This document shows positions 1 to 63,700 of a DNA stretch of 64,000 nt, piece by piece. Source of the stretch: Candidatus Omnitrophota bacterium (GTDB lineage: Bacteria > Omnitrophota > Omnitrophia > Omnitrophales > Aquincolibacteriaceae). Both the position numbers and the translations under genes were made by a program. Each line of letters begins with the position of its first letter. Positions within the stretch are counted from its first letter, which is position 1. The stretch spans positions 28,150 to 92,149 of the forward strand of contig JAUYMS010000042.1 in the NCBI GenBank assembly GCA_030698625.1, in the 5' to 3' direction. The notes beneath the pieces were generated by a model. The model searched no databases. It was not told the DNA's origin and saw only the letters and a list, made by a program, of their open reading frames with translations.

Positions 1-3000
1 AGATGGACGGAATCTCAGCGCCGGTTCCCTGGATCAGGGCATCAAAGGCTTTCTTGTCCGTGGACAATCGCATGATACCGGACGTATTCATGACCGGTAT
101 TCCCCGTGACTCCAGCTCCGCCAAGACAGATGCTGGCGCCAGGCCTCCGGTTGCGACGGCATCAATGGGAAGAGGCCTTCTGAAGTGACCGAGCACCAAC
201 CGCCCGTCCTTATCCACAAAAACGGCATAGGATGCGTAAACAGCGTCTGAGTTATCACGCCCGCGGTAAAGGCCGCGAACGGGCGGTATGATGACAAAGT
301 TGGCCTTATCCGTTTTATCCTTTGCCGCCCAGTAAGTGGCGAGTTCAAAGCCCGGAAACCCATTCGGGAACATTGCAACATTGGGCCCCTCAGGATTCGG
401 GAGATCCTCCCAATCGACCTCCTCGACCGCCATGGCCGCATTGTGGCTCGGCAACCCGCCCTCAAAAAGATCTCCGTAGCCCGTTTCTCTAAATTTTGCA
501 ATATCAGAAGCGGCCGTCGCCTGTAATAAGATGGCGGGATCGATCCCCAACTGATTAAACAACTTGTCCTCCAACTCGGCGTAAACTTCTTCTTCGGAGA
601 CGCGCAGCTCGGATCGTCTCGTCGACTGGATGGCTTCCCACAATGCGGTTAGTGCCCCGCCTTCGGCTTCCAACCTGTAATAAATTTCCGGATCGGTGAC
701 ACGATAGACACCGCTTCCAAGCGCCCCGTGTTCATGACGATGCGCCAGCCTCTTATCTAGCCAGTCCGGCCTCAGATCGAGGGCGTTGATCAACTGGAGC
801 CCGGGTGCATTAAAAACAAACGGACTTTGAGGATGTTTGTCGGTGAGATTCCCCAGGTCACGGACAGGTTCAGTTATGTAATAGGTGCCTGGCCGCGCCA
901 GGACTGAAAGCGTATTTCTCAATGCTAAGTACGAATCGATCAATCGTTCCCATATCGGTTCGTCGTTTAGGTCCGCTGCAGATGTGCGGTCCTTATTCTC
1001 ATAGGTGACATTCCGCTTGTAGACGGCATCGGCGCTCCTACCCTCGAGACCGAGCCGCTTCAGCACACCGTCAACACCGTCATAAGCCGATTGAAGCTCA
1101 TCAACATTGAACACATTGGCGTGGAGCACCTCTAGGTGAAGCTGTCCGGGTTGAAGGTCGCCGGGTTCGATCCCCATCAGCTTGATTCCCTTCCCCTGCT
1201 CAAGAGACTTTGTGAACGCGCCGAAGTACATCGGCGTCTGCCTGAAAACAATATGTTCATCGCCGTCGAAGGCGATGAGATGGATATCCCATGCCTTCAA
1301 TTGTTCCCTGACCTGATCCTCGCCATACCGATCTGCGAGTTCTGCCTTGAGCTCGGTGAAAAACATTTTGACTATGTCCCACGCTTCCACGGGATTCCCG
1401 CCGACACCGACTTCGGCCAGAATGACCGTTGTGTCACCAGCATCAAGTTTTTCACGGGCAAGTTGCCGCATAGCAGAGTGAATCAGCTCCGCCTGTAGAA
1501 CGTCTTCATCATTTTCCACAAATCCGATCGTCTGAATAAAACCCGTGGGAGACTCCAAGACATCTCGAGCAAGAGCCGTCAGGTAAGCATCGGTATTGGC
1601 AATACCAATCGTCTCACTCATCTCAGAGCCAATCCCTTCAAAGGTGCCACGCAAATTCGTAATCTGTTCATCCGTGGCAACGGGCACGCCCTCAAGGGCA
1701 GCTAAAGTCTGCCCGAACCGCTTCACGCGGCGCCCGACATGCAGTTCAATGGCGGCATCACTGCGCAGTTCGGAGCGGTCGGCGTCTTTAGCAATCTCGC
1801 GGGCTTTCTCCTCGACCATCGCCTCTAATTCGCCGACAAGGTTGTACTCGAGATAAGCGTTCATCACCGAAGTTCCGGCCTCATCGGCCACCCTTGAGAG
1901 GCGATCGGTTTCTTCGCTGCCCAAGATATTTCTCATGCTGCTATGAAATCGATGCTCACCCTTTGCGATATCCCCAAAGTAGTCTACGTGCTTATTTTCC
2001 AGTTGGGGGTATTCAAGCCGAATGGCATCCAACGCCTCCCGGCGTGCATAAAGGGCCAGGCGCCGCAGGCGCTCGTATTCCACAGTGCCCACAGCGGACA
2101 GGATGTATCCGTTCCCTTCAGGAACAATGTGCTTGCCCACATCGCGAATGACATGCCAGATGGGCATTCCCTTTCTATTTGTACCCGGCTGAAAAACTCC
2201 GTAAAGGAAGCTGTCAAGAAAGAAAGAGACGTGCTCGCTAGTCTCGGCCCACGCGGGGCGCTCTTCATGGATTTTATTAGGGATTGAGCCCGAAAAAATT
2301 GCTGCCGAAACGATTCTTTCCGAGTCCGTTTGAAATTCCGATTGGAGCCGCTGCCGCGTGCGGAACATTTCTGCTCCTGACAAGGCGACATCGTCGAGGA
2401 GCACGACATTCTTGCCCGTGCGTGCAAGTGCCCGAATACCGTCTTCGTCTTCCGGCCTTTCCAAATACAAGAACTCCGGGACATCTTCCGGATGAAATCT
2501 CTGCCACATCAACCGCAGTAAGCGTGCGGCCCAGGGGCCGCTTCCCGGAATGACAATAATCCGGTGCAAGTCTCTCTCGTCTTCGCGGATGCGGTTCATG
2601 AGATTATAGGCAGCGTCTTTCAGGGAGCGCCGCTCGCCGAGAGAGTCATTAATGATATCCCGCATATGAGAGGCCTTTTCCAACGGGTGCTTAATAACAG
2701 CGAGTTTAACCTGGCGGCCGAAGGCTTCAGCTTCGTGAAATTTTGCGATGCGATTACCCGGTTTCAGTACTGTTGCGGTACCCGCTCCGGCGGCAAGCCG
2801 CGCGGCTTCAAATAGGTTCATGCCCCGGCGTTCGGCGTAAATAAAAGCGACCTTGACTGCATCACCTGCGCCGACATCGGAAACGGTCGTGACCGGAGGA
2901 TGCTTGGCGTGATACGTGATTATCTCCTTTTCATTGAACGGGCTGCGACTCGTTGCCAAAATGCCGTCGGCCCCCAAGCTGATAACCACTTTGTTGATAC

Positions 3001-6000
3001 CGCTCCGGATTAGATCCTTCGCATACTCGGCGATCCTGACATAATCGCCTTCGAGCTCACTCACCGGCACACCCAAGTAATCCGCAAGCTCCCTGAGATT
3101 AATACCCAGAAAATGGGGGCGAGCTTCAATGCCGTGCCGGAGGGCCTCCCCCCGCGTGTCGAGATAGGTTAGGATGCCCAGTTTCTTGGCCTCGCGAATC
3201 TTGTCGGCGTAGAACGTTGCCGGTAATCCCGGCGGGAGACTGCCGGAGAAGACCACGTAATCGCCCTCCCTCAGGTGCATGAAGATAGAATCGCTAAGAC
3301 TCTCCTGCTCGGCATCCGTCATATCGGGGCCGCGCGGAGTGACATTCAACTGGTTCCGGTTGCCGGCATGCACATTCATGGCAATGCGCGAATCGCCTTC
3401 GATCGGAGTCATGAGCGCCGTGCCGATATTGTCTTCCAGTTCGGCCTTACCGATCTGAATCGTTCCGGCCGCGCCTCCGAAAGTGCCGGTCGTAATCGGC
3501 GAGATGTCAAAGGCGATAAGGCCTCGCGAAGCGTTAAAACCCTTGCCTCCCGCATACATATTATAAGAATCCGGTACAATGATGCCGTCGGTGCCGTTGG
3601 CCCCGTCTGGGGGAAACTTTTCGAAATCAAAAGATACGTCGAGAATGCCGTTGGCCATCACCGTGACAACGCGCGGCAATCCATCAACGGGGTCAATGCG
3701 CCCTAATGCACGATGATCTCTCGTCGGCTCATACTGCTCAGCATGCTCCTCAGGCGTCTGCCCCACGAACAATTCGAATGTGACGCGGCTCAGATGCTCA
3801 AGCTCGGCAGAACTCAAGCGCTCCGCAGCTTCGTGATAAAGCAGCGGCATTTCCGTAACACGGCCGCTCGTAATGACACCGTTAATGACTGCGCGCATTC
3901 TCCCAACAGGCGCATCGCTTGCCAGCGCATCCCTGAACTGCTGAATCTCGGGACTTTCATCTTGATAAAGATCTGCGCGGCCCGTGATCAGCGCGGCAAC
4001 CCGCCCGATCCCGGCCTTTTCAAAGTCGGTAATCACGTAGTGCGCACCTGCATCTTGCAATTGTTTACGAGAATGCAAGCCGGTTGCGAGCGCAACGGGA
4101 ACGATGCCGGCTTCAAGCGAGGCCGCCTGGCCGCTCAGCGAATCATCCACATAAACAACCTGTTCCGCGGACAAACCCCCTCGGATCTCGCGCAGAAGAT
4201 CCCCTTTCGATCGATTTTTCTCCTTGGCACTTTGAACCTCATCGATGTATTGATCGATACCGAACAAACGGGCCTGACGCATGACCGTGGGTGTGAGGTT
4301 GCTGGTAACCACGATGATCGCGATCTCCGAAGTAGCCTCCTCGGATCTGATGAAATCCAGCAGGGCAATCGACCCCGGAGTCATCCGGTTGTCGCGGGTC
4401 CGGTCTGTCGGCGCAACATAGAGCCTCGCTCGGGCGCTCTCCAAGAGCTGCCCGGCCTTTTCAGTGAGCGTCTCCCCGGGCAGGGCTGCCAGGAATTCCG
4501 AATTCCCGAGTGTTCTTTCCGCCATTTCCAGTAATATTTCTGTATGCTTATCATCCGTGCGGTCGCCGTGCCACAACTCCTGCACGATCTGAATATGCAG
4601 AGCTTCGGCCGCCCCATCCAATGTCCCGTTCGATAGAACAGGCGCCAAGATTTCGGCCAAACGATTCTCGAACCATGAGATCGAATTGTCCCAATCGAGC
4701 ACAAGCGCTTTGACATCACGCGGGGCCACGGCATCGGGCTTCGCCCATAGGGCATCGCCGGTTCTAAGTTCGGAGCGGGCATTCACGATTTCAACGTTTC
4801 CGAAGTAAAGAAGTGCGTCATACCGGAGGTCGGCAGAGGCTCTTGCCGCCTCTTTGACAAATTCTTGCTCGGCATCTAAGAAGCGCGAGCCCCCGAGATA
4901 GCTTATGAAAATTCCGTTTGCTGGCGCGAGCGACAGAATCTCCGCATCCTCGGCATTTCTCAGATTGGCATAAACGGGTTTGATCCAGCTCCTGAGAACC
5001 TCATCCGCCGCATACCGAAGATCCAAGGGTATGCCCGATTCCAATTTGGGTAATAACTCGCTTCGAAAAGAAAACGGGGCCGTTGAACCCGGCGAGGAAT
5101 CCCGATGCCAAGTTTCACCGATTTTCCCATTTTGGATGATGCGAGGGTCATCATAGGTGACCGCATCATCAAAACCCTGGGGATCATCGTAGGAGAAATC
5201 AAAACGTCCGTTCTCGGCAAGGGCAAGGTTCACAATCTCCCTGTCGGCGGCTTCAATCTTCACATCCCAGCTTTTCAACCAGCTTTCGAATCCTTCAAGG
5301 CGTTCCTTATTAGCATCATGAAATTCCTTAAGCGCGTAGTAGATATCCATCGCCAGAGAATAGGGTTCTTCCCCGCTTGAAATACCCACATTTTTAAAGC
5401 GAAGCGTATAATCCTGCCTCGCCTCTTTCCGAACGATAAGTTTGCGAACATATTCCTGAATAGCTGCGTCCTTGTAACGGAAAAATTGGGTGCTCTCCCG
5501 CGAGTAATTCGGGATGGCAGCTAATGCCGAAAAAATCTCCGCCCCTAACCGGAACAATTCATCTTTGTTGCTCTGCAAACCAAATGAAAGGTAATCTCTA
5601 AAACTTTGCCGGTCCTTTAACTTCACGCGGGCATTCATCAAGGACTCAAAATAGTGCCACATCCGGTCTTTGATGGCTTCCGCCCCGATAGCTTGGTAGA
5701 TGCGGTCAATACTCGTTACCGTTTCGCTGTCCAGTTGTCCAAAGACGGCGGCGACAAACCCCTGTTTCAAATCAGCGTCTGCTGCCGCGCCCGTGGTCAA
5801 CGCATTGACAGACTCGAGAATTCTGTTTTCATCCAATGCACGCAGTTCCGAACGGTCGGGCTGAATTAACAGAAGGGCTTGATTGCGCTTATCAAAAAGC
5901 ACCACGGGCGATTCTTTGGACCGCCAAACATTTTGGAAAATCGCCACGGGCAATTGATCCGGATCTTTGACACGCAGCACCAGAAGGACTTCCCGGTTCT

Positions 6001-9000
6001 GTTCGTCAAGTCCGTCGAAAATGGGATATCGTTTTTTCTCATGAGTCAGAAATCCCTTGTCGATAAGCCCCCGGATTTTATGACCCGCAATGACGGGTTC
6101 ATTGACGGCTGTGCGTAAAAGATTGCTGACATCGCGAAAAGCCGAAAGGTTGCCGCCGTGGGCGGATTCCCACATGGTTTTAGGATCCATTCTTTCCGTA
6201 GTTCTGAGCACAAGATCCCCCGTTACCGGAGCCCGAATACCGGCAAGGACGTGCTGGGCCGGTATTTTTGTAGTCCGGCGGAGGTTCAGCTTGTAGGCAA
6301 TCGCATTATCGGCACTCAAAACGAGCGGGCTTTTTTTGCTTTGCCGCGTATCCTGCACGGCATGGATGAAGCTTCGTTCAAGACTAAGATCGAACCAACC
6401 CCCGAGTCCCGAAACGACCGAATTTCTGATCACTCCCCGGGAACGGGGGTCCAGATTCGCGTTCAAAACAACGGCATTTTCCAAACGGAGGTTCCCATCA
6501 AAGAGCGTCCCGGTTTCCGGTTCGGGTACATCCCAGAACTGCCGCGCCAGGCGCCCCTCGGCAGAATCCTCAAGTAAGACAAGCATATTATGCCGAAAGA
6601 CTCCTTCCGAAAGATCCTCTTCCGTCGCGACATTGCCGAAATCCCACCAAAGGGCATGACTTCCCACGTCAATGACCCGCATGAGCGGCTGAGCGGAATC
6701 ACGATGCTGTTTCCAAAAGAGATTGATCATTTTATTACTGACCTCATCCGCGGCAATTCCCTGCCGCCTTATAAATTGCCGGAAGGTTCTTAAAGAAGAA
6801 AAGCCGGCGGCATTCCGCTCTTTTTGCTTGAGAAGGAAATCAAGTCTCGTAAGCGGCACCCACCAATCCTGATCGGTATTTGCAGAATTCTGATCTTGTT
6901 TTTTGGGATCCGTTTCATTCAGTTCCCGCTTATAACTCTCCATGAGTCCGTCCCAAAATTCCAGACTTGCCGTAAATGACCCGAGACTCTTGCCGATAGC
7001 GTCGACCTCGCTGTGCCTGGCAACAAACTCCCTGCCGCTTTCGGCGCTCTTCGGCTTCTCCATGATTCGCGTGGCATGCCATGCATCCCCTTCTTTTCCT
7101 AACGCGATCAATCCGTATTTATCGACCAATTCTTCAATATCGAAGTCCCCGACCAGCGAAAGGATTTCCAGCGGCAATTCGGCGGCTTGACTTAGTGTCT
7201 CGTGCGAGACTGTGGGGACAAAGACCTGATCTCCCCAAAAAACAAGGAGCCTTCCGCCGCGATTGCGTGCGAATATGGAGGTTTGGAAGATAACGGATTC
7301 TAAAAGGGTTAGCGGCATCGTCTCATCACCCGATATCACATGCCGCGGCATTGCAATCTTGCTCTTGGAACCGCCTTCGGCGCCGGTAATCGGCCAGATC
7401 CGGCTGCCGAATCCCGCCGTATGGTACATCGCGATAACCGGCTCTCGTTTTCGTGTCCGGCGAATAGACTCTAAAAGCTGTTCCCAGGTTTTCCCGGTTT
7501 GCGCCTCACTTATTTGCTGCGCACTTTGATAAGCGACCAGGGAACCCAGTCCGTTCCCTGCCGGTTTCGAAACTCCATAGCTTTCCACAACCGAAAAGAC
7601 TTCTGTGTTTTCGCCAATCACTTTACCTTTAGTGCTTTGCAGTCTTTCCTCCCAAAACCGTTGTTCGGCGGCATTCGAAGAAACAACGATCACGATGTCC
7701 GGGCCTTCGGATTTCGCAATGCTGTCATACATGGCTTGAATATTGTTTGACGCAATCGCCTCCTCGGCGGCGCTGATGCCGCCGTCAGTGCGCAGTTCGG
7801 AGCGCGAAAAATCCATGATTCGAAGATCTTCATCATTGACATAAATTGTGGCATCGAACATTTCCGCTAAAGTCGTTGCTCCACTCAATTCATAATACGG
7901 CAAACGGCCTATCGCATTGTCTTCCTCATCTAAGTCCGCCACCGCAAAATCACGATGTCGCAGGGGATCGTCCCAGCCCAAGGCGCGATGGATATAACTC
8001 TCTCTAAGGCCCAAACCATATGACGACGAAGATTCGTAACCAAATGCATAGTAATTTGCCTCGCCTAACCATCTCGTTAAGTATTCTCCTACCCCCGGAA
8101 GCAAGGACCAGAGGTCTAGCATCAGAATGCCAACAATCATCGCAATCCCATCTCTTTTCGGGTGCTTCTTTACCACGTGCAGCTCGCCCAAGTAGACAAG
8201 GACCCTGTTATTTGCATTTTGATCAAGCAGCCGTTTGATCCTTTTTGCGGTGTAGTAATCGCGCAGGGTCCTCCGCACGAAGCCGCCCTTACTTTTCTCA
8301 TCGATCGGCTCAATCGAAATCCCTTTTTCATAAACAGCCTTGAGCATCTCCAGAAAGGAACCCAGGTCGAATAACCGGGAATCGAGCGTCAATACTACCC
8401 CCAATTCATCCAATGCGGTCTTGTCAGGGTAATTATTTCCATCCTTGGACTGAAATTTCGCAGGAATGATGTTTCGGAGCTCCTCGATGATATCGTAATT
8501 CCCGGCCAGATAATCTCTAACATCTTGGATCCCCGATGCCGCCCATTTTTGCAGCAGCAGATCGAATGCCGGTTTCATCGCAGGAGCTGCCTCAATAGCG
8601 AAATGAGTGAAGGGGCTGGCCTTGATAAGATTGCCGATGAGTTCCCGGTATAGGAATAGGGTCTTCGCACGGTGCATGTCACCAAAGGCAATAACTCTTG
8701 TGCCGGATTCCACCGCAGACTGAAAGACATCCGAAACCGGCCGGCCGTATTTCCTGGCCGAGGCAGCAATCTCCTCTTTAGGCGGCACAACGGCAGTGCG
8801 CAGCTCGGAGCGTGACTTCATGCCGGAGTGTAAAGAACGCGCGAGTTTTCGGACGCCGCTGCGTTTGTCGGGACTGCGTGCAATCTCCCCAAGGAAGGCG
8901 TGTGCCTTGTCGCGGAAGGGATGATCTTCGGGAATTTCGGCAAGGAGCCGCAGCTTCGTCTTATTATTGAACCAAGTGCGGTGCTCCCGGATCGTTTCCA

Positions 9001-12000
9001 AATAACGGTCAAAGGCAGCCTCTATTCTTTCAAAAACCGGATGCTCAAGCTGTGATGTGGCACCTATTCCGCTATAATCGTAATTATAATCGCGGGCCGC
9101 TTGCAATATTTGACCTAGCTTCCAGCGATGAACGCCGGTCGGATACACATTAATCCGCCATTCGAGCAAGCCCATCCAGAGGTTCGTGATCGCACCGCCT
9201 ATGCGCCTGAGCAGGATATGGAGAAGGACGGCGGCGATCGGCAGACCCGCTGCTAATATAAAGAAGACATCCTCCGGTCTCAACTCGGAGCGCGCGGGGT
9301 TGATGCGCCATAAAGTCTTCGAATCCCAGTCAAAATTGTAGAAGTCGCCCGGTTTAATCTTCGGTTGTTTGCCTTTCGCCACCAACGAGATTATAGGAAT
9401 GCCCTTGCCGCCGCGCGTGTTCCGGCCCCACTTGTCGGCGTCATCCTGAGTGCTGTGCATCACCATGACCCCGTCGATAAGCTTAGCGAGACCGATTCTG
9501 CGTTTTAGATTTTGATCTAACCGATCGACCAGAACGTATATCTTCGGAGAGCGTATGGATCGCGGTAAATAGGACTTGAGCCAGCCTTCCGTGAGAAGAT
9601 CCATGTCCTTAACACTGACGACCAGAATCTTATCCTGCACGTAGTTGACATGCTGCGGGTGCCGGCTATCGGGTAAGACCGCGTAAGGTTCCCAGCTTGC
9701 CTCAAAAGGCATTTCATCAAAGAAGGTCTCCGGCCCTTCATAGTTGAACTCAACGGTCAGCAGGTTCTCAATCGTGTCGACTTCATCGGTGACAAGGGGT
9801 CTCTGAGTGAGGGTCAGCAAATAAGGGAATGCGGACTCGTAATCAATTCCCACGCGAGGACTAATACTATGAATCCAGGCCATGGGTTCTTCGGTTCTGC
9901 CTTGGACAAAATCCAAATCGCTTACTTGTGACTTCTCAGGTGTGAAGAGCCTCACTTTATTGATTCCATCCTTCTGCCTCTGCCAAGCCCTGACAACCCG
10001 GTTGAACTCTGCGAGGCTATTGACGACCTTGTGTTCTTCAATCGGCTCGGACCGGAGTTCGGAGCGCACCCACCGGCGAAGCTGCCCCACGTTTTGCCCA
10101 TAATCCACATTGGCTGCCGCGCCGTTCGGAATGAGCTCGCGGGAAGGACCCGGGAGAGAAAAGCGATCGAGCACGTTCGCGGCTTCACCAGTGTCTTCAC
10201 CCATATATTCCTGCACGCCTTCTTCAGCAAGCGGCAAAATGCGGCTGAAGTGGTTCCCGCCTTTTTTCCTGACATGCAGTAACTGTCTCGCCATATCGAG
10301 CGCTTCGTCGCTGAGCACTGCCTTGAGCGCTTCGCCGGCGCGGCCCCCGAATAGGGGCGCCATGCGCCGGGCAGAATCAACCGCCATGCGATCATAGAGG
10401 CCCAGTTTTTCTGATTTATTTCGCCCCGGCTTATTCCACTCAAGGATCATCGCCCGCAACATTTCAATGGCCTCTTCCGAGGGCTTGAGCCCTGTCACCT
10501 GCCGGAGCCGCACCATGCTGCCGATATTCTTGATGATTCGTTCCTCCACCTCGTCAACATCCACACGTTTAGACATCTGCCGTACCGTGAGTTCGCCTTC
10601 TTCTAAGGCAGTTAGCACGTCTTTGGGAATTTCGATCTGAAGCGTTCCTGTTTGGCGATTTAAGTAAAGGGTCATGCGGTTGATGGCGAGATAGCCGTTG
10701 CTGTCATCCTGCAGCCAATCGCGAAGCGAATCACGACTGCGCCAGGCTGAAGCCGCATCCACTTTCAGCCCGAAGTCTCTCGCGATCTTCGCCGCCACAC
10801 GGCCATGCTCAAGCATGGAAATATTCTGCGGCCGCCCCCCTTTCTGAGCGTACACGGAAATGTCCAGGTCATGAATGGTGTACCAAAGGCCGGTAAGACC
10901 CGCGAGCTGCAGGAGCACGTTAATGGCTGTCCCGCCCCAGAACTCCATGGCGAGTGTGCCGTTTTCGGTATCCCAATTCGAGGGTGAGGATTCATACGAT
11001 TCCAGAAATTCGCGCATTTCGCGAATGATCGGCGAGCGTGCTTCTGCGACAGCTAGAGGAATATCGAGAATAACGAAGTCGCTGTCTGCAGCCGGCTTAA
11101 GCGACCCTTCCGGGAGCCGTGACTTCGGACGGAGCCCGGCCGGAAGGCTGTCCGGTTGAGAATAACGCGCTACGAGCTGGCGCGTGCGTTCCGTTTCAAC
11201 ACCCAGGTATTTCTGGGCAGTCTGCTGGGCTTGAGAAAGCAGGGCGTTGCGATACTTGTGCCCCCGGGGTTTAAGCTTGAGGGATGTTCGAGCCAGTTCC
11301 AACACATCGTGCCCCAAGGCAAGATCAAGCGCCTTCGAAGTACTGCCGGGTGTAATCGCCGCGATTCGTTTCGTCGCGTTGAGCACCGAGTCGGTGTACA
11401 GGGCCTGTTCGGTCACGCGCCCGGCCCCGGCGGGCATTGCCATAAAACGGGCAATGTTCGTTTTAAGTTCGGTGCGGGCACTCTGAGCAAGGTTTAATCC
11501 CGCGACACGATTTAGCCGAACGGCGGAGCCGATATTGACCACGATCTTATCACGCAGGGTATCCGCCTCGGTGATATCCGAGCTGTCTGTGAAAGTGATC
11601 TCACCGCGATCGAGGGCTTCCCGTGCCCGCGCGGGCATGTTGATGACGAACTCATCAGTCTTGCGGTCGTAACGAATCAATGTCTCATTCAGCTGCAAAT
11701 CCCCCGTGCGTGTTTCCCGCCTCTTCCGTTTAAATCCCTCCTGATCTTCAAAAACAGGCGTTCCGTCGACTTGAACACCAAGGTCATCACCGACCCGCCT
11801 AACCAGGTTTGCGATATCGTCGTTTGAGACATCACGCAGCTCCCCTTCATCGTCCAGATAAAAGAAAATATCGAGGTCATTGACCGTGAACCACATCCCC
11901 GAGACATCCGCCAACTGCAGAAGCACATTCGAAGCCAACCCGCCCCATAATTCGAAAGTGAGCGGCGCCCCGTCATAGCTCTCGAGAGATTCACGCAAGT

Positions 12001-20074: not shown

Positions 20075-20375
20075 TCGCTTCCTTTCTTTTCCCTTTTCAT
20101 AATGAGATAGAATCTCCACGTAGGGCGGACGACGCACATAGAGTTGTCTATGCACGCTCCTCCCGTGGGGAGCTATATCACGCTATAACACGCTATTTTT
20201 CTACCTCGTAAAGATTACCTGATGAGGGTGGGAGCTTCAAAGGCAGGAGTGAATTATTTTTAGGGATGACGCTAACCTAAGCCTTTGTTATAGCTAGACT
20301 TAGATCAAGCGCCTCAGGCAGTCGCCAACTATTTAATGGGGATAAAACGGAGGGTGGGAAATTTGAGAAAATGGC

Positions 20376-34659: not shown

Positions 34660-34682
34660 TATAATGAGGGATGTCGAGCTTA

Positions 34683-35261: not shown

Positions 35262-35538
35262 GCTTTTGACTTTTTTTCTTTTCCCGCTATTGAGAATTGG
35301 ATCACAAGCTGCGAATGACGATAAAATGCCAACAACCTCTCTTCCGGAGAAAGGGAGCAATTCAGTTTGATAAGGTCGTCGTAATCTTGTTGAAGAACGC
35401 GCGATTTCATAACAAAAATATACCACACTCCGGCTCAAAAAGGATCAAATGAATAGCGTTCCAAAGTAGTTTCAATTGGGACCAATTATACCAGTGGCTC
35501 AGGGCAGTTGAAACACTCAAAGAAGCCCGTTCAGCTAT

Positions 35539-50458: not shown

Positions 50459-51430
50459 TTAGAACCAGCTGACTCTCTTTTGCGCGGCCGGAATCTTCTT
50501 ATCATCCTCGTGCAGGCTTTCATTCATTTCCATCGGATGGGCTTGATGGACTCCCATCTGGGGGGCAAAAACAATGGAATCGGAGGAATTTACCGTTATC
50601 TGGCGCACTTCGCTCAGCATATCCTGCTTAAAGTCAATCATTGCCGGCTCCTCGCCGTCATCTTCAACGATCCCCTCGAGAACCGTGCGGCGATCCTGAA
50701 ACGGCGGATGCGTATTCATAAAGACGACGAACCGGCTCACGTCGTCCATTTCAATCTGTGTTAACCGTTCCACAAAGGCCTTGAAACCTCTGGGGTCGTA
50801 ACCGGCCGCGACAAGGTATTCAACGGCCTTTTCATCGGCGTGAATCTCGGCGTCCTTTCCAAACTGTCGGCCAATATAGGGAGCCGCCTTGCCGGTGTAT
50901 TTTACGGCGTAATAAGCGGCCGTTCCGTAGGTTCCGATACTGTTGCGGGCCAGTTCGGTACCTTTAGACAAAGCGTCGTAGGCCTTCTTCATCTTGTCAT
51001 GCTTGGGAATATGCGAGTACTCGTAGTAGGAAATATGCCCAATTTCATGGGCTATAATACCGGCCAGCTCCGACTCGGAGCGGACAAAGTTAACCATGCC
51101 CCGCGTCATGTAGATATAGCCTCCGGGGCCGCCGAATATGTTCACATCATCACTATCGAGAAGAATTACGTGATAGGGCAGGTGGGGTCGCGTAGAAACA
51201 GCAGCGATGCTCGACGCAATCGCATTGAGATAAGTTTCAAACTTCGGGCTATCGTAGATCTGGTATTCCTCTAAGACCCGCCTGTGATTTTGCTCCCCAG
51301 CTCTAATCTCGACCAAATCATCTAACGTTAGCGGAAGTTCTTGGCTTATAACACCCTTGCGATCAATGCGCGAGCAACCGGCAGCAACAACTATCATAGC
51401 TATCAGCACTGCGTAGGCCATTCGTGCCAT
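50459..51430 (-). CDS. M48-family zinc metallopeptidase lipoprotein (YcaL/BepA-like)
   Basis: HEIGH zinc motif and downstream EIHADEKAV / GYDPRG motifs; lipoprotein signal MARMAYAVLIAMIVVAAGCS. Start placed at the ATG at 51430, preceded by GAGGAG 8 nt upstream. Confidence 0.8.
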   Translation of the reverse strand: MARMAYAVLIAMIVVAAGCSRIDRKGVISQELPLTLDDLVEIRAGEQNHRRVLEEYQIYDSPKFETYLNAIASSIAAVSTRPHLPYHVILLDSDDVNIFGGPGGYIYMTRGMVNFVRSESELAGIIAHEIGHISYYEYSHIPKHDKMKKAYDALSKGTELARNSIGTYGTAAYYAVKYTGKAAPYIGRQFGKDAEIHADEKAVEYLVAAGYDPRGFKAFVERLTQIEMDDVSRFVVFMNTHPPFQDRRTVLEGIVEDDGEEPAMIDFKQDMLSEVRQITVNSSDSIVFAPQMGVHQAHPMEMNESLHEDDKKIPAAQKRVSWF

Positions 51431-51504
51431 GAGGCACTCCTCGTTCATTAATCTACTTCTTCCTATAATAGAATATACCTCGTCAGCGATCGATTTACAA
51501 TTTT

Positions 51505-51777
51505 CTAGAGGAGCGTAAAAGCGAGCATCCCCATGAGGATCATGAGGATAATAAGGATAAGCCTTCCGTCCTTGATCCATTTCGCAAGCTTTCCGATCGG
51601 CCCGGAATCATCAAAAACCCGTTCGCCGCAATAGAGGCAGGAAAAGCTATTTTCCTTAATCGGCTGGCCGCAATGACGGCATGAAATATCGGCAAGAGGC
51701 CGGGATTCTTCGGCTTCCCATTTCTTGCGAAGGCTCTCGGGTTCTTCTTCCTCTTCTTCGTTAGGCATAAATCTCAA
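51505..51777 (-). CDS. small zinc-ribbon protein with acidic N-terminus and C-terminal TM helix, translationally coupled to giant gene C
   Basis: CRHCG...CLYCG zinc ribbon; C-terminal LILIILMILMGMLAFTLL. ATG overlaps the gene C stop by 17 nt. Confidence 0.5.
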   Translation of the reverse strand: MRFMPNEEEEEEPESLRKKWEAEESRPLADISCRHCGQPIKENSFSCLYCGERVFDDSGPIGKLAKWIKDGRLILIILMILMGMLAFTLL

Positions 51778-54700: not shown

Positions 54701-57700
54701 ATGGATCCTGAGGAGCTTGGGGAACCATTCGCCGCGCTTATCACCCTCACTCTGCAGTCGCCGGATAAACTCGGCTTCGCGGCGCAGCTTGCCTTTGTCT
54801 TTGGCCGTATTCGCTCTTTTTTCAATAAGCACACGGCCATCCGGATAGAATTTTCTTTCCACGGTACTGTAGGACCCACCGTGCAGGCGTTCTGATCTCA
54901 CGCCTAAACCTGCTATTCGGGCAATATTCGGAATTCCATAGCGAGACGTGCGGCCAAACCGCGATCCCAGCGGGTAGTAATCCCCCATCATAAAATAAAT
55001 CTCCGGCACCACATTTCGCCTAACGGGCACGCTAACGACCTCCACTTCCGCCTTTTTGTCCGAGGCCACTTCCCGCATGAAGACCAAACCGCCGCCGCCC
55101 GTTGCCGCGGCAACGATGGACGCGTCAACCACCTGCTGCGCTTCTCGAACCACCTGCTTGGACGCAAAATGAATTTCGGCCGTGAGATAGTGGAATAATT
55201 TCTCATGCTCCTCGTAATTCCATACCTTTGTATCGCCGGCTGCTTTTTGCCACTTTTCCGGGGAGTCTTCCGCCGGTATCAGCGCCCAGCGAAATCCGTC
55301 GCGCTCAGCCTGACGCGTCAGAGCCTTGAATTTCTGCTGATCGCCCGAATTCAGCGCCGCAAATAATGTTTCGTCAGTCACCTCTACTTCGCGCAGCTCG
55401 GAGCGGTCAGTGCCGGCAATCGCGGCGGCTTTTCTCGGCAATACGAAGGCATGTCCGTCTTCATCATAGCGCCTTCCCAGGTAGCCAAAAAGCCGGCCAA
55501 AAAAGTCTCGATCACTGTCTGTGAATTCAACCGCCATCTCGTTATAGACAGAATCCGGATCGACAAACAAAGCGAATTTAGGCGAAAAATCCTGGGCAAT
55601 CGCAAACTCATTGTCGGCAACGTGGCGCAGAGCTGCCGCTGAACGGCTAAACAGCCCATGAAGCCTTTGCATCTCAGGCTCAGAGAGCGCAATGCGGCCA
55701 TACCACTCTTCGAGCAGCGCGCGCGCCGCTTCGTCACCGGCTTGTCCGGCCCTACTCTCCAGGAACATTGCGATGAACATGGCAATGTGGTCCAAAATGA
55801 CGGCCCGTGAAATTTTCTTGTAGGCTGGCAGCTCTTCAGCCGAAATGTCACTGACATCCGGGACAAGAATCGTATGGATCAGTGTGACAAAATCATCTGC
55901 CTGAATGCCCCGCACCGCCGAACCCGCCACGTATCTAAGATCATCGCCGCCTAGTTGCGTGCGCAGGATGCCAATATTTTCCGTTATGAATCCGATGTCC
56001 TGCCCTTTTCGGCCGAAGAGGGCCGCGATATCACCGAAGTCACCGTTGCTTAACACCCGGGTAAATCCCTCGGAAGGTTTATGGACATCCGCCAAGTTAT
56101 TAACCTCGAGCCCTGCAATCTCGGGCCGTCCTTTAAAGAGAAGCCCGAACCGCGGTTCTGCGATGTCAAGCATGTCGTCAACCAGTTCCAATTTACCTTG
56201 AAAGATCCACTCCGTCTCTCGGGTGGAAATGCCTTGAACATCAGCCCACTGGTCGAAGGCCGTGCGCATAAGGGCCGAGAGCAAGCGCTTAGTCTTGTAG
56301 CCGCTCTCGGTCGCGACCAGTTCCTGCCGCAGTCCCTCGGCCTTGTCCAATGCCGCCGCTATCTGTGCCTCACTGCCCCCCAAGCTCTTGATTAACGTTT
56401 CAATCACGGTCTTAAAATGCGGGCCTTTTCTGTAATCCTCGCGCTTAAGGCCGGTCGCTTCGGCAACCACAAAAAGTCCCGTGAATAGAGAGCGGATAAG
56501 GATAAGCGCATCTTGTGGAATTGTGATCGGAACTAAGTCGCCTGTGTCTTTAAGAAGACCCGCGGGACTCACATTACGCGTAAATCCGGACTTAACATGC
56601 GTTGCCATGTCCACATACTTGATCGTCAGATGCGACTTCAATACCGCCGCAATATTGAGAGCCAACATCTCACTCAAGTCACTTAGGTAATTGTCTCGCG
56701 CCTTATCGAGATCGGGATCAATTTCATCGACAAGATAATTTTGCATACCCCCCACCATAATGTCTGAAAGCGAACGGGTGTCATCGACGATGACACGCAC
56801 CGAAGCATATAAAGGTTCCAGTTTTTCGCTCACGCCCAAACGCGAGAGATCTTCCCGGCTCAAAATCTCTTCGGCGGCGATGGTAATGGCCGATAGATAA
56901 GCGCCGTTTTCGAGAAGGAGTTTGTCGTGACGAACGGCCGCTTCTTCCTCAAGGCTCGAACCTCCTATGGCCACATTCGAGTGTTGATAAGACGTGAGAA
57001 AGACACCGCTTTTCCCTTCTAAGCGCGGATCTTGAACCACGCTGACTCCGGTTCCGTCGACCTGCTCGTGCCCCGCGTCGGCAAGCACCAACTGCGGAGC
57101 CGCTGTACCGGCTATCACATCCGCAAGAGGCGCGGTATGCATCGTATATTTTCCGCCAATCCCTTTGTACTGTAGGGCAATGACTTCAAACGCTAATTTG
57201 TGCCCAAGCTGACGCGCGAAATTAAAAAGCGCAATCATGTAAAGAGCGCGGTAAACCTCATCGTACATTTCCAAACCGGGAATAAGGCGGTCTCCGAACT
57301 CCGTCTTACTGACCCCAGCTACGCCCGACCTCGTCTGTTCTTTAATCTCGGCAAGCGCCGCATCTGCCGCCTGACCCATTTCCTCCCCGATAAAGGCCTC
57401 ATAATCCTGCGCCGTCGCAAGAATTTTCATCTTCCCGTCGTTGACGATCATCTTGATTTTATTCTTCGGCATTAAGACGGTCCCCTGCCGAGTCGGTTTG
57501 ACGGCCGTCTGAAGCAGCGGCAAATGCACATAGGCATTCTCGCTGTCTCTAACCCACTCCAGCCCGACGGAAGCCATCTCCTCTTCGGTGAGTTCAGTAC
57601 CATCCTCCCTATGAATAGCGCCGACAAAGGGAATAACCATGTCTGCAGCCAGATCGAAGTTACCTTGGCCATCGTATCGCGCGAACTTTTTTGATTTTAC

Positions 57701-60700
57701 GCGCAGAAGGCGTGCCTCTTTCAACACTTGGGGAATTCCGGCAAACGACCCGCGCACAAGCCGTTCGCTTGGGTTTGGATTTTGCGTATCCACATTGAGA
57801 CCTGACATAAAAATCCGGCCTCCCAACCGCTTCATCACGGGGAAATCCAGTAACTTGTCCAGCCCCAAGGCAAATTCTGCCAAGGTTCCTATGGAAAAGG
57901 GGTACGGGTGAACGATCTTTGTTTGCCCTTTCTGCTCCGCGACGTGCCAGCGGAATCGGCCTACCCACTGTTCAACGACATCACGATCGATCGTGATGTC
58001 GTGCACATTGTCGGCGGACGCCGTCGCCCTCAGCTCAGAACGATCCTTCTCATCCTCGAAAGATCGGAGGAAATCGTCAGCCGCTTCCGTATCGAGAAGG
58101 CGCTCTACCAACACATCCACAGGGACATCGTCACTGTAGTAAAGTTGGATGGCTTCAAATAAAAAGCTCCATCCTAAGCGGGCGCGAGTCGCTTTGCTCT
58201 CCCGGGCATGAACGGGGTTTTCAGGATCCAGTTCGCGCGCTTGCTCGTGCTGGAGAATCGCCAATCGGTAATACCGGTGGGCGTCCCACCAGTCCAAGAC
58301 CTCTGCCGCGGCATCCCCGCCTAAACGATAAGCATTCCCGAGCGCCGCATGGGCGGAGGTTTTCTGCGCTGTTGCGATGCGGTCGTCGGCCGTATAGGTA
58401 AGCGCCGCTTCCTGCTTTTTGATGGCCCGCTCATAGAGATCTTCGGCCTTACGAAGATTACCCAATTCCACTTCGACGTTCGCCTGCCTCAGGTAGTTGG
58501 TGCCTTGAGCGCTTAGGATTTTGGCCATCACACCGGCGTACTTGGATCTTTGCTCAGGCTCGCCTGGTTTGTTTATTCCGATACCGGTCTGCTCGGTGAT
58601 GTCGTCCAATGCTTTTCGAGCTCGAGTTCTCTTTTTTCCCTTCTTGGGTGCCTCTGCGCTTTTTAGGGCGAACTTTTCCGCCTTGCCAAGGTGGCCCATG
58701 GCCTTTCTGAGGATTTTAAGCCGTTGACGCGGATCGTGTTGCAATTCATACGAAACATCAATGGCTGTAGAGACATCCACGGCTGTCTGAAACCACTCGT
58801 CGGCCCTTTCGATATTGAGGCCGGCTTTTCCGCCTTCGGTAGTCGGGCCCAACAAGTAGCGATGTTCGGCCGGGTCCGGGCCGGCCGGCGCCGCGTCCTC
58901 CTGCTTGGTCGATAGCATGTACTGCCTGAGGAACCGCTTCACGACCCGCTCGTCACGGCCGTTTCCGAGATGCCGGTTCAGCATGTGTACGACAAACTTC
59001 TTGGTTTGTTCCAACCCCGCACCGTTTTCACCACCGGCCGCTTTGTAGACATGCGCCACCAGGGCTTCAAAGAGAGTCGAGTGATAATCTTCGCCCTCGG
59101 TCACCAACTGGGAGTGGACATCTGCAAGCGCGGCCATCATCACACTCGCCAAAAGGCGGTTGGAGGCGATAATGCCGTGCAGATGCCGGAAGACATCGTA
59201 CTGTTTCCACTCATCGGGCACATCATCGGCTCGCCACATATCGACTAAAAGCGATAGAACAACCATATCCAATATCGAGTCACCCCAGGTCGCGTACCGT
59301 TCGTCGATAATAAAAGGGAACTTATGCGGAGTCGCGCTGGTGGCATACTCCCGCTGTCCCTTAGACGCCGTTGTAATGGCCATGAGCTGGTCAGGTGAGA
59401 GGCGGTTGCCTTCAAAAAGGATCTCTCCCAGTTTCGCGCGTGCTTTCGGATGAGCATCCAGCAAGGTGCCTACGGCAAGTAGCTGCCTACGGCGCATGGG
59501 CGGGCCGGTATGCGGTTCAAAGATCGGTTCCATCGAGGTTCCCTCCGGCTCATAATCCAGGCCGTCAAACGACGGGTGCAGCAACGCTTTAATGGCGCTC
59601 TCATGGCCTTCCGTGTACAGGGCCCCGATCATAAGAAACATGAGATATTTACGCGTGTCACGCGTCGCATAAAAGGCGTTCGGATCAAAATCTCCGGCCC
59701 CCTTCGCCAGCTCCGTGAAAGAGTTATAAAGTTTGTGATGACCTAACCACAGTTCCCGCACTGAAGGGTCGGCCGCGTTAATAAAGTCGTGCAGACTTTT
59801 TTCATGAATGCCTGGATAACGGCCCATCGCATATTGAATGAGGGCGTGTTTGTATACAAAATTACCCAGGAAGTAGAAGAACCCGGCCTGCTTCGCTAAC
59901 TTTCCTTCGGTTGAAACGCGCATAAGCGCCGCTGCGCCTTTTTCCCATGCCGCACGCTGCTCGTCACTTTCAGAGGCGATGTGCTGCGCATAGGCCCCGT
60001 CAACGCGTGCAAAGTCACGCTTCGTGGGATCCGTCGTTCCGCGCGGCCCCTTACGGTAAACATAGGCGCGGCGTCTGCGGCGGTCGGTTGCCGTTCTTAT
60101 CTTTTCAAAACCCATGTAATTAAGCCAGGCAAACTGTTTATTGTCATCGATCTCGCGGACCGGGATATCCGTGATAAGGACCCCTCCCTCGCGGAGGGCA
60201 TTATGGGCCGTCGCGTAAAACGTGCTGAAGCTCGCGACGCGGTTTTGCTGCACTCCGAGCATGAGGCCGCTTCTTTTAACCTCCATGCCGTCCATATAAA
60301 TCAGATCCAATTCATCCTTGTATTCCAACAGGGCATCGGCCAAAGCAAAGGGGTTGTACGAACTCCCCAGCGGATCAACTGCCGGAATGCTGTCAATCGT
60401 CATACCCCGCTTTCTGAAATCTAAATTGAGAGCCGCGGACTCTTCACGATCCCCCACATGAACGGCTTTCTTCCCCTCCACACCCCCCGGGAAATATTCT
60501 CTGACGGCAATGTGGAGAAGTTCGTGTCCGGGCCGCAAATTTGCCTCTCTGGCGGATTTTAGTTTTGCCTGCATGCGATGATTTATGACATGCTTGAGAA
60601 AATCCTGGGTCATCTCACTGTCGCTTGGTGTCCCTTTACGAAACGCCAGCAGAAGCTGTCCGGGCAGATTTCCTATCACTTTAATTTGCTCAAAACCCAT

Positions 60701-63700
60701 GTAGCGCAGCCACGCCGACTGTTTGCCCTCGGCCGCCCCGCCTTCAGGCACCGTCACAAAAAGGACTCCGTCATCTTTGATCAAGTCGCGAAGGGCCCCA
60801 TACCGGACCGAAAATGCGGTCGTCCCGTTCCTCTCATCTCCCGGCATCATCCCGCCCTCCCGCACCGCTTCTCCGTCAAAATACACAAAGTCATATTGTT
60901 CACTTTCTTCAAGCACCATATTGGAACGGCCCAGGAGTTCGTCATAGAGCGCTTCTCCCATCCGAGACTCCCCTTCGGAATCGAGACGTGTGATCTCATC
61001 CATCTCGGCACCCCGAGCTTTAAGTGCCGCCTGAAGCTGATCGGCACCTTTGACCGAACCGATTTCAAGACCGCGCTTTCCTTTGAGGTCGTCGCCATAA
61101 TAAGCGTCAAACGCTAAGTAGAAATTGAGAAGTTCCGGTCTTTTTACCGTCGCCATCCCCTTCCCCATTTTTTCTGTCCGGAGCCTCAGGACATCCGTAT
61201 TCTTTGCCTCCGTCCTGAGTTCAGAGCGCTGGGAAAAGGAGGCTTGGAAGTGGTCTGCCGCTTCGCGCGCAACCCGAAGCACGGCCTCAGGCGCCGGGTG
61301 ATGGCCTTCCCCTTCGAGCATAACCAGCGGCGACCCCGTCTCACTTGCGAATTGCGTCATGAGGTCGCGGTCGGTCTGATGTGTAATCCAATCTTTGTCG
61401 CCAAAAAACAGGAGTGTGGGGTGTTCTTTTGCTTTCAGCCGGCTGAAGTCGTCGATGGAAAAACCGTACTTGTTCAACTCAACCATGAGCCGAAGATGCC
61501 GTCTTAAGCGGCCGCTAATATCAGCGCCCCCGGGTTCCATCCCAAGCACATTCCCGGCATAGGCATCCATATGCCAGATATTCCGCGAAGAAGTAAAGGT
61601 GGCTCGGGCAGGAGCATTGATCGTCGCTGTTGCCCGCACATTTTTCGCCACGAAGTCTGAATTCGCCAGAGCGCGCAATGCCGCATAACCCCCAAAGCTG
61701 TATCCGAACATCGCAATATTTTGGGCTTCGATCTCCGGACGCCCCTGCAGAAAACCAATGGCGGCTTCCACGAAGCGCACCAGGTGCTCGGGGCCCTCGA
61801 GCGGCGTGTCGTGATCGCCGTGTCCGGGAAAACTCAGTCTAAACACCGCAAAGCCGCGATCTATCATTTCCATTTCGATCGGGTCTAACTCCGCCTGCTC
61901 ATGGGTATGCGTTAAACCATGGAGCAGGATCACAACGGGAACCTTTTGCCCCGGATCTCGATGCGGAGGGAGAAAGAGATAACCGGGATAACTCGGGTGG
62001 GTAATCTCTTCGATCTCAGGCGGCACTCGGCCTGCCTCTTCATATTCGGCCACGCGGCCCTTTTTATAGATCCCGCGATGGGCGCCCTCGACTTCGTGAC
62101 TCCGCCCAATTTTCTGCGTCGTGTAACTCTGTGCGTTATAGAGAAGCCTTCGCTGCTGGGCGATGTCGCCTGCCTCATGCGCCAACCGAGCCTCGTCGAG
62201 CAGGATTTCCCGCAAGGCCGGAATCCATTGTGTGAAAAAAGCAAGCCGTGCGGTCCGTTCGATGATACGCTCAGTGGTCTCCTCACCGATTCGCGAAGCA
62301 ATCATCGCGGCACGGACCTCCCCCTTATTAGTGAGAAACCACTTCCTCCACTGATACCAAGGGTTGAAACGAGTGCCGGGCGGAAGCTCAGAGCGCTCGG
62401 CTCGCAATTCGGAGCGTTCCTTTTTCGGATCCCACCGGAACTTCCATTTCTGATCCAGTCGAATATCGGGAAAGTCCTCAAGAACTGTTCCCTGCAAATC
62501 ATCATATTGCCAAAGTCCGTCACGAACTTTTTGCAGGCCCATATTTTCAAATTCACGGGGAATGCGTGTCTCAGCGGGTACATGGAGCTCGAGCACTTCG
62601 GCCCCGTTGGCTTTGGCCAGCCGCATCGCAAGGATCAGGAATGTGCGCGTAAGTCCGATATACCTGTCCTCACCGCGAGCTGTCAGGTCAACATCGTTGG
62701 TCGATACCGCTGCCTTTTCCCCGCGAAGCTCCAGGCTCAAGGAGCCCACCGACACTTCCGCGTCGCTCTTAGACGTTCTCGCATTGCCCTCGATGCGGAC
62801 AGAGACGTGATTTTCGGCACGAGTCCTTTCCCAGCGAAAATAGATATTTCTAAAGGAGTTCGACAAAGGCAGCCTAAAGCGGCCGAGTCGCGGGGATTCG
62901 TTGCCGCGCATGACCGTATCAAAAGTCGTGGTCTCGCGCGAGGCCGCCAGGGCCCTTTTACGAAGATAGTTCTCGCTAATCTCCACAACCGCTCTTCGAA
63001 TGTCATGAATGCGCTGTTCTTTCGGTTGGCCTTCGTACAGGGATGCGTACACGTGCAAGGTGTAAAGAATGTTGGGGATTGCCGTTTGTGTCCATGCCGG
63101 CAGCCAGTCCTGCCAGAATTCCTCCAACTGACTCTGCAGCGCGGCAGGGGGAGTCGGAACCACGCGTTTCGGAAAACCTTTGGCCGACATCAAGCGTTTG
63201 AACTCAACAAAGAACTCCTCAATCAGACCCGCTCGCAGTAGAAGATAGACAATTTCCTCCTGAATCCTGTACGGAAGGATCATACTCCCGGAATCGGTTC
63301 GCTGTGCGTGGTGCAGCATACGGCGTGCCCTGCGGTAAAAGTGCTCGGCCTTTTTGGAGTGCCCCATACTGTCATAGGCCACGCCCCAGACCTCGAGTTT
63401 GTGAGCCGCATTCCCGAAATTCTCACGGGTCAAAAGATCCGCATGGTTCGCGTAGTCTTCCGCGCCACGCCGAACCTTCTGTATGGCGGCTTCCAACCCG
63501 TCAGCATAAGCCACAATGCCCGGTTCCTCAGCCAACACCCGCCGGGCATCCTCTTCAGCCGTAACCTGATCTTCTATGACCAGAGGGCTAAGAACCGCGT
63601 CTATCTGCTTATCCGTAATCCCCTCAAAGAGAACACTCTTGTCTTTGAAATCCTCCTTGGCTACCTCGGCACGGATGCGGTCGTGACGGACCTGTGCCGT

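Follow-up and report, generated by a model that had tools for sequence, protein, structure and literature searches.

A pentapeptide punctuation motif at module boundaries of giant Omnitrophota proteins, a candidate polyprotein cleavage site

We analysed a 64,000-nucleotide stretch of contig JAUYMS010000042.1 from a Candidatus Omnitrophota bacterium (hereafter, the window; G+C content 53.7%), in which three giant genes, A, B and C, all on the minus strand, encode proteins containing many copies of the pentapeptide RSELR. The pentapeptide turned out to be the variant used here of a motif, R-[S/A]-E-(L/V/M/I/A/T)-R, that recurs throughout the protein family. This punctuation motif, strict and tuned to the lineage, separates modules that are enzyme-sized and shuffled, in a very large family of giant proteins from Omnitrophota. 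With modest confidence, we take RSELR to be recognized by a site-specific endopeptidase whose cut, made behind the last Arg, frees the modules from a polyprotein. Such cleavage, possibly by a TIKI-like 'head' module found at the N-terminus of genes A and B, is a well-motivated hypothesis.

All three giants are tiled with unrelated enzyme domains, as detected with Pfam. Gene A contains HEAT, ATP-grasp, GNAT, CheR-like, HAD and PfkB domains, and gene C contains an alpha/beta-hydrolase (residues 676–897) and an RmlD domain (residues 3460–3691). The genes and the two head modules are laid out as follows (aa, amino acids; GT, glycosyltransferase).

2..20077, minus strand: giant gene A, at least 6692 aa from the ATG at 20077, stop-free over 2..20182, C-terminus beyond the left window edge; signal-like N-terminus, head module, then at least 12 modules with RSELR between them
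17945..20077, minus strand: gene A head, an N-terminal hydrophobic segment and a putative TIKI/ChaN-like domain, up to the first RSELR
37862..45337, minus strand: giant gene B, 2492 aa; head, module X, GT5+GT1 module and tail
43298..45337, minus strand: gene B head (aa 1–680), with a predicted N-terminal helix, alpha/beta core, helical insertion and disordered tail running into the first RSELR
51764..63964, minus strand: giant gene C, 4067 aa, without a head module; six copies of RSELR and one of RSELP

Gene B is identical to NCBI entry MDP3920983.1, 'glycogen/starch synthase [Candidatus Omnitrophota bacterium]', which lies on a 253-kb contig of a metagenome-assembled genome. This public name spans the whole gene, while the domain itself covers only about aa 1571–2103; splitting the protein at the motif would lead to a better, module-wise annotation. 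That genes A, B and C share the same reading frame was treated as a coincidence (1 in 9).

A six-frame search of the window found 21 exact RSELR pentapeptides, every one of them in the coding frame of a giant (12 in gene A, 3 in gene B and 6 in gene C). Shuffles of the three giant proteins put the chance expectation at 0.04 copies. Copies with one mismatch are limited to four in the three giants (RSELL twice, RSALR and RSELP), and no other variants of the form R[SA]ExR occur in them. The motif is likewise missing from the 20 ordinary genes of the window (no R[SA]ExR in 6517 aa), so the similar density in ordinary proteins that the first-pass annotation had considered is not seen there. The same annotation had placed RSELR in frame in the giant minus-strand genes, and the search recovered the copies at the coordinates it gave. 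Its 'tandem pair' at 62384–62416 survives by half, in that the first copy is an exact RSELR and the second, RSELP, carries one mismatch (21 exact copies and one near copy in all). In the list below, designations L002–L082 refer to related loci and P numbers to related proteins.

602..616, minus strand: RSELR, gene A
1763..1777, minus strand: RSELR, gene A
4763..4777, minus strand: RSELR, gene A aa 5136–5140, about 16 aa before the HAD domain; end of a block homologous to P0043/L002
5840..5854, minus strand: RSELR, gene A; position conserved in L002_g3, L003_g3 and P0043
7790..7804, minus strand: RSELR, gene A; start of a homology block common to P0043, P0042 and L002
8798..8812, minus strand: RSELR, gene A
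9278..9292, minus strand: RSELR, gene A (motif A3631); Pro next, hydrophobic segment 3 aa after
10052..10066, minus strand: RSELR, gene A
14183..14197, minus strand: RSELR, gene A
16334..16348, minus strand: RSELR, gene A; HEAT repeats about 9 aa after
17009..17023, minus strand: RSELR, gene A
17930..17944, minus strand: RSELR, gene A; first site after the head
38777..38791, minus strand: RSELR, gene B aa 2183; boundary of GT module and tail, where both adjoining homology blocks break
41303..41317, minus strand: RSELR, gene B aa 1341; boundary of module X and GT module
43283..43297, minus strand: RSELR, gene B aa 681; first site beyond the head, with a disordered tether in front of it
52697..52711, minus strand: RSELR, gene C aa 3752; just after the RmlD module C-terminus, in a predicted disordered linker
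53594..53608, minus strand: RSELR, gene C aa 3453; alignment puts the start Met of free-standing RmlD proteins 2 aa downstream
55391..55405, minus strand: RSELR, gene C aa 2854; start of a module paralogous to B 681–1341
58028..58042, minus strand: RSELR, gene C aa 1975
61214..61228, minus strand: RSELR, gene C aa 913; 16 aa after the alpha/beta-hydrolase end
62402..62416, minus strand: RSELR, gene C aa 517
62381..62395, minus strand: RSELP, degenerate copy, gene C aa 524; two residues after the previous copy

The 21 copies are encoded by 18 distinct 15-mers with synonymous change at every codon (Arg as CGN or AGR, Leu as CTN or TTR) and without any amino acid change, and therefore the constraint is on the peptide, as had been proposed from the varying codons. 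The motif is thus real, far above chance and constrained at the peptide level. The sequences flanking the 21 copies are not homologous to each other, although they show some preferences. Position –1 is Asp or Gly in 10 of the 21, position +1 is Ala, Thr or Ser in 17, and positions +2 and +3 are often acidic.

Codon usage within the motif is uneven. The first Arg codon is CGC in 16 of the 21 window copies, and among 163 copies in loci L002–L082 it is CGY in 78%, compared with 38–44% elsewhere. The Ser codon is TCN in all window copies and in 115 of 118 elsewhere, against an AGY background of 34%, a pattern that may follow from interchange of Ser and Ala under purifying selection. The last Arg codon is used at near-background frequencies.

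The motif extends well beyond the window. Relatives were found through the head module by an exhaustive hidden Markov model search together with a metagenome scan; a word-indexed homologue search gave only two proteins. Exact RSELR recurs in the giant open reading frames (ORFs) of relatives at 31–44% protein identity (8 copies in L002_g3 and 4 in L003_g3), and one of these relatives, taken from a genome collection, is itself labelled Candidatus Omnitrophota. In the top 150 head-bearing proteins (432 thousand amino acids, kaa), R[SA]ExR occurs 696 times, compared with 26 times in shuffles and 11–35 times for scrambled or charge-swapped control patterns. There are up to 26 copies per protein, and each protein favours one or two variants among RSELR, RSEVR, RSEMR, RSEAR, RAEVR and RSETR. 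The motif recurs in orthologues that are only 25–45% identical. R1, E3 and R5 are invariant, position 2 is Ser or Ala (Ala in 151 of the 696 copies), and position 4 is usually aliphatic. Restriction to giant genes also holds on this scale: across 82 loci, ORFs that reach 1000 aa or more (243 kaa) contain 149 copies of R[SA]ExR, and shorter six-frame ORFs (407 kaa) contain 7. Those 7 are at or below the roughly 24 implied by shuffles, and several of them lie in fragments of giants cut by contig ends.

Other lineages of head-bearing giants, which have no R[SA]ExR, carry a second motif, [AG]xSLG, in the forms GASLG, AASLG, ASSLG and AQSLG. It occurs up to 17 times per protein in unrelated contexts, is mutually exclusive with R[SA]ExR and has small residues at positions 1 and 3. 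We observed it in loci L017, L018, L021, L025, L029, L030, L032, L038, L048, L049, L053 and L063 and in proteins P0108, P0115, P0120, P0138 and P0150. A search for a third punctuation motif in head-bearing giants with neither of the two produced nothing convincing. Known bacterial sorting signals (LPXTG, PEP-CTERM, Tat RR, lipobox) do not fit the R[SA]ExR motif, which is internal and present in many copies rather than terminal.

The position of the motif relative to protein modules is evident from homology among the giants. Among 1060 BLASTP alignment blocks from 152 giant proteins, a motif is found no more than 5 aa away from 20% of the block starts compared with 2.7% at random, and block edges peak exactly on the motif, at its first R (113 blocks) and its last R (75 blocks). 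Individual alignments display the same arrangement. Residues 681–1313 of gene B match residues 2854–3452 of gene C at 35% identity, with motifs at B681, B1341, C2854 and C3453. The segment A4127–5140 matches L002_g3 750–1790, with motifs at both ends and at a conserved internal position. Both B1341–2188, which matches L002_g3 1970–2794, and the tail B2183–2482, which matches L002_g3 4265–4571, start or end on a motif. The order of modules is not conserved, since two modules located deep inside gene A directly follow the head in P0043 and P0042. The length of motif-to-motif segments (median 252 aa, interquartile range 141–473) is that of enzyme-sized modules.

The RmlD segment of gene C illustrates how closely motifs and enzymes may coincide. 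The start Met of free-standing dTDP-4-dehydrorhamnose reductases (287–297 aa) aligns 2 aa after RSELR (RSELR-TKRVAVIGAS in gene C, MKVLVTGAN in the free-standing enzyme), and the C-termini of these enzymes fall 0–8 aa before the next RSELR. Judging from the alignment, one motif pair brackets exactly one full-length RmlD enzyme. The placement of motifs around a Cof-type HAD in P0131 is similar. No Pfam envelope contains the motif in A, B, C, P0131, P0037 or P0043, in keeping with the earlier suggestion that the sites lie at boundaries and not within domains. The first-pass annotation had further noted that the motif typically precedes the start of a domain, and where this is testable it holds: RmlD begins 2–3 aa after its motif and a hydrophobic segment 3 aa after motif A3631, the only window copy that adjoins such a segment. 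The motif before the HAD domain does lie just upstream, at a distance of about 16 aa (Pfam envelope from 5157, motif at 5136–5140) and not of about 25 as had been given.

Structure prediction and composition agree on the kind of sequence in which the motif resides. In AlphaFold models, site C3752 is in a stretch with predicted local distance difference test (pLDDT) values below 50, and a largely disordered stretch of about 30 residues, most of them with pLDDT below 50, precedes site B681. At 636 sites, the motif flanks contain 26.9% hydrophobic residues compared with 32.9% at random positions of the same proteins, and they are richer in P, S, T, G and Q (p=1e-27 to 1e-53 in flank-composition tests). 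This suggests that the flanks are linker-like and the motif is exposed.

The residue that follows the motif also has a distinct composition. At +1, small residues make up 47% compared with a background of 26%; Pro is found in 2% compared with a background of 4.7% and with 8–13% just upstream; and Leu, Phe, Tyr and Trp together account for 6% compared with 18.5% (p=2e-19). Among all flanking positions, +1 is the extreme. Because Pro and bulky residues are avoided at +1, and because the resulting N-terminus would match the native RmlD start, we propose that a cut is made between R5 and the small +1 residue. The motif, exposed in its linker, would be recognized by a site-specific endopeptidase, probably in an extended conformation, and the giant protein would be a polyprotein diced into separate enzymes. 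We favour this cleavage reading because it is matched by enzyme-sized modules, free module order, lineage variants and a mutually exclusive second motif; the lineage variants and the mutually exclusive [AG]xSLG also fit co-evolution with a recognizing enzyme. The first-pass annotation had offered a linker, a cleavage site and a docking motif as possible readings. There is strong support for what these have in common, a peptide signal that lies at module boundaries and is confined to giant genes, and it now covers a whole protein family; of the three, cleavage is the best supported.

If the giants are cut, a candidate for the enzyme is present in the same chain. Genes A and B start with related heads of about 650 aa that follow a signal-like hydrophobic segment (A 38–552 and B 7–547, 27.5% identity, E=1e-41 in BLASTP). 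When 1.84 billion representatives were searched with a profile of the head, 8683 clusters at 50% identity matched, including 3703 at E <1e-30, and 424 matches were confirmed among candidate stretches of the metagenome scan. Near-invariant signatures of the family are HIQDAH..NPEAQ, AVEGA and TGGFH(T/S)EG. The structural model of the gene B head, built with 35 homologues, has a pLDDT of 83.8 and a predicted template modelling score (pTM) of 0.82. Its core is parallel, with strands at 84–90, 118–123, 182–185, 517–524 and 542–547 and a helical insertion of about 320 residues.

Structure comparison of this model gave the following matches and scores: ChaN, 8.5; the Ere-like protein 2rad, 8.2; a TraB family protein, 8.0; HopBA1, 7.8; the Ras/Rap1-specific endopeptidase RRSP, 7.5; 2qgm, 7.3; and EreC, 6.5. 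Besides RRSP and Ere, the other structural matches belong to the TIKI/TraB/ChaN/erythromycin-esterase superfamily as well. For RRSP, Bcr135 and Ere, membership in this superfamily has been described (PMC6254334). The catalytic residues of RRSP, E3900, H3902, E3930 and H4030, form a 2His/2Glu set common to TIKI enzymes (PMC6254334). In the head, D90-x-H92, E124 and H527 match these residues in order and spacing, the first acid being Asp and not Glu. The head residues are located at or just after the C-termini of strands in the model (84–90, 118–123 and 517–524, respectively), and their conservation in heads of both motif classes (113 heads) is 85% or higher. As modelled, the head appears to be an uncharacterised TIKI/TraB/ChaN/Ere-type fold with an intact 2His/2acid signature.

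Thus, the head resembles the TIKI superfamily in its alpha/beta core and in the ordered acid-x-His ... Glu ... His residues at strand ends. It differs in having Asp as the first acid, an insertion of some 320 helical residues, an N-terminal hydrophobic segment, a fused cargo of thousands of residues, and no profile match to the superfamily. Searches of the head against Pfam (E up to 10) and NCBIfam (E up to 1) returned no superfamily match, a profile search against PDB returned chance-level matches only, and Foldseek matches in PDB were not significant. Sequence profiles assign the head to no family, and neither Pfam nor NCBIfam has a model for it.

No classical protease domain was found with Pfam in the three window giants or in twelve relatives (for nine of the relatives, among the 25 most frequent of 48 families), and the head is therefore a plausible same-chain protease. 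It would be tethered to the first site by the disordered linker, and giants without a head, such as gene C, would be cut in trans. Based on the modelled fold, we put forward only tentatively, as a possibility with the chances somewhat against it, that the head is what cuts the motif. The first-pass annotation had pointed instead to an M48 peptidase, encoded at 50459–51580 on the minus strand. Its gene follows gene C at a distance of 183 bp and in the same orientation, and the two may share a transcript. Nothing beyond this adjacency speaks for the peptidase. M48 was not found next to any related giant gene in the loci analysed, which cover gene B-type heads and not gene C orthologues, and we dropped it as the lead processing enzyme.

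Several observations weigh against the proposed cleavage or against the head as its agent. The evidence for cleavage is all indirect. The TIKI superfamily also includes esterases and haem binders. A comparison of heads from R[SA]ExR and [AG]xSLG users identified no specificity-determining residues at strict thresholds, only diffuse differences, which is not what a simple model of a head that reads the motif predicts. A minority of head-bearing giants lack either recognizable motif. P0151, which at 54% identity is the nearest relative of the RmlD module, carries an upstream RAELR and no motif at the RmlD junction (alignment A3, columns 190–205), and hence individual sites appear to be gained and lost. 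In the AlphaFold model, site C3453 is not in a loop; it closes a helix, and the first Rossmann strand starts two residues further on. Finally, the CGY bias of the first Arg codon hints at some constraint beyond the peptide level.

Part of the evidence could also be read in terms of an uncleaved tag. Here, the motif would serve docking or recognition within linkers, the giant would stay whole, and the tag would be read by a partner such as a scaffold, a chaperone or a factor for translocation or assembly. An exposed, strictly conserved linear motif at boundaries, with lineage variants, also fits a binding site. Such a tag, however, does not predict depletion of Pro and bulky residues and enrichment of small ones specifically at +1, and it leaves unexplained both the coincidence of segments with full-length stand-alone enzymes and their native termini and the free shuffling of module order. 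We also know of no reader domain for it. On balance we regard docking as unlikely, yet as an alternative to be taken seriously.

A co-translational signal is improbable for different reasons. The nascent peptide, possibly together with its codons, might pause or instruct the ribosome at a module boundary, for folding, membrane targeting or a 2A-like break that needs no protease. The location of the motif exactly between folding units would suit such a role, as would constraint beyond amino acids in the form of the synonymous bias (CGY in 78% at the first Arg, TCN in 115 of 118 at Ser). Yet most synonymous positions vary freely, and the TCN-only pattern is explicable by Ser/Ala interchange under purifying selection. 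Peptides of this type usually need a longer conserved upstream context, whereas the flanks here are unrelated. To our knowledge, no bacterial arrest or skipping peptide resembles R-S-E-x-R.

Modification of Ser or Arg in place of cleavage would be in line with an invariant charged pattern in an exposed linker, but Ala replaces Ser in 151 of the 696 copies, so a hydroxyl group is not required. Moreover, nothing accounts for a need for modification exactly at module boundaries, and no modifying enzyme consistently associated with the giants was found. We consider this explanation very improbable.

Hardly credible is a DNA-level element, a 15-bp recombination or insertion core left at junctions by module shuffling and translated incidentally: junctions and homology breakpoints do coincide with the motif and its nucleotides are partly conserved (CGY TCN GAR), but first codon positions change among the 18 15-mers while amino acids never do, the motif is conserved with different codons across lineages whose heads are 25–45% identical, and there is no palindrome covariation. 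A DNA palindrome or hairpin was rejected on the latter ground (codons 1 and 3 do not covary at their third bases, Fisher p=0.09), and a DNA repeat or recombination core as the conserved unit was rejected because of the codon usage. Short sequence matches at the motif may help recombination, which would not explain its conservation.

Among known systems, MARTX toxins and viral polyproteins are the nearest functional analogues of the giants, which belong to neither. MARTX toxins of Vibrio and relatives are, like the giants, very large bacterial proteins with unrelated modules in variable order and with unstructured linkers; in MARTX an internal protease domain cuts the linkers at a short site and releases the modules. 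The MARTX cleavage site is minimal, with the cut after Leu. In contrast, the giants have a strict pentapeptide, modules of a housekeeping type for metabolism and signalling, and a candidate protease that is of a different fold and N-terminal. Genes A, B and C lack MARTX hallmarks, as neither a C80 cysteine protease domain nor RTX/GD-rich repeats were found with Pfam (E up to 0.01). One of the MARTX effectors, RRSP, is itself a TIKI-fold site-specific endopeptidase (PMC6254334).

The comparison with MARTX touches on the localisation of the giants, which is paradoxical. Genes A and B start (at 20077 and 45337) with a Sec-signal-like sequence, namely positive charge, about 18 hydrophobic residues and 'TTVAWS-AP', whereas the cargo is of a cytoplasmic type that needs ATP, NAD(P)H or phosphoenolpyruvate. 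This cargo includes PfkB, ATP-grasp and RmlD in the window giants, and in relatives enzyme I (EI) and HPr of the phosphotransferase system (PTS) and response regulators. We speculate that Omnitrophota might encode a large part of an enzyme repertoire as signal-bearing polyproteins, each led by its own TIKI-fold endopeptidase and diced at R-S-E-x-R or [AG]xSLG. Since cytoplasmic-type cargo (glycogen synthase, PfkB, RmlD, PTS EI/HPr, response regulators) is nevertheless combined with a Sec-like signal on the heads, the giants could possibly represent MARTX-like effector trains that are exported or injected into host or prey and cut there, as part of a phylum-wide delivery and processing system not recognized before. 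This scenario is, in our view, rather unlikely.

Viral polyproteins, such as those processed by 3C, NIa/TEV-like and NS3 proteases, offer another parallel, with a strict junction motif of 5–7 residues, a small residue after the cut, a protease in the same chain, co-evolving site variants and enzyme-sized products; in the giants the cut, its same-chain protease and the co-evolution of the two are putative. The giants differ from them in being encoded by cellular chromosomal genes, flanked by rpsB-tsf-pyrH-frr, with many polyproteins per genome, a candidate protease without a chymotrypsin-like fold and no fixed module order. In polyproteins processed by proprotein convertases (prohormones, nematode polyprotein allergens), units are separated by a basic motif and cut after Arg. 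The motif described here departs from the furin/kexin consensus, R-x-[KR]-R or dibasic, with its invariant central Glu and R-x-x-x-R spacing, and no S8 domain was found in the window giants with Pfam.

Giant proteins of Omnitrophota have been described before. The window giants share with them the phylum and a domain repertoire of starch synthase (PF08323), GT1, GNAT, HAD, methyltransferase and HEAT. By domain content they correspond to the 'multi-enzyme metabolic cluster' type (module 1/2) as set out in bioRxiv 10.64898/2026.06.07.730766, although at 2.5 to >6.7 kaa they are smaller than the 10-kaa cut-off given there. In West-Roberts et al. 2023 (bioRxiv 10.1101/2023.11.21.568195), cleavage by C39 or S8 domains is suspected and the cleavage points are stated to be unknown. 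Term searches of these two preprints found no passage on a junction motif or a head domain, and a term search of Seymour et al. 2023 likewise found no junction motif. In full-text literature, the string RSELR returned only software names such as varSelRF among the matches listed, and no Omnitrophota paper was among the 15 top matches for Omnitrophota combined with polyprotein or cleavage site.

Giant genes are characteristic of Omnitrophota, as they are of other ultra-small symbionts and predators, and the motif addresses the question of whether their products work as single megadalton chains or in pieces. The motif is the first concrete candidate for the cutting sites of giant proteins, and it predicts exact new N-termini. 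It also provides a rule by which any giant protein can be split for annotation and structure prediction, and it explains how modules can be shuffled between giants. Standard proteomics relies on trypsin and would not reveal a cut after Arg, a possible reason for its having been overlooked. The head family, with its thousands of unannotated clusters, is possibly a new clade of site-specific TIKI-type endopeptidases and, if this is true, enzyme and pentapeptide site could be used as an orthogonal protease/tag pair.

Some features of the window and of the related loci are worth recording in addition. Among the ordinary genes of the window are rpsB, tsf, pyrH, frr and genes for MTHFR, the M48 peptidase and an aminotransferase. 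The region 33430–37425, which separates gene B from the housekeeping genes, contains a PIF1-like helicase, a DUF6036/DUF2204 nucleotidyltransferase and an ORF with a recombinase zinc-ribbon domain only, and may be the remnant of a mobile element. At 26396–26926, on the minus strand, a 176-aa protein combines a bactofilin domain with a C-terminal HTH_17 DNA-binding domain. Among the related loci, L004 has two giant ORFs in the same frame with a single stop codon between them (9845–9847), and in L002 a 2330-aa giant that is intact in L003 (2679–9668) is split over two overlapping frames (5505–5626). These breaks could be assembly errors, pseudogenisation or recoding.

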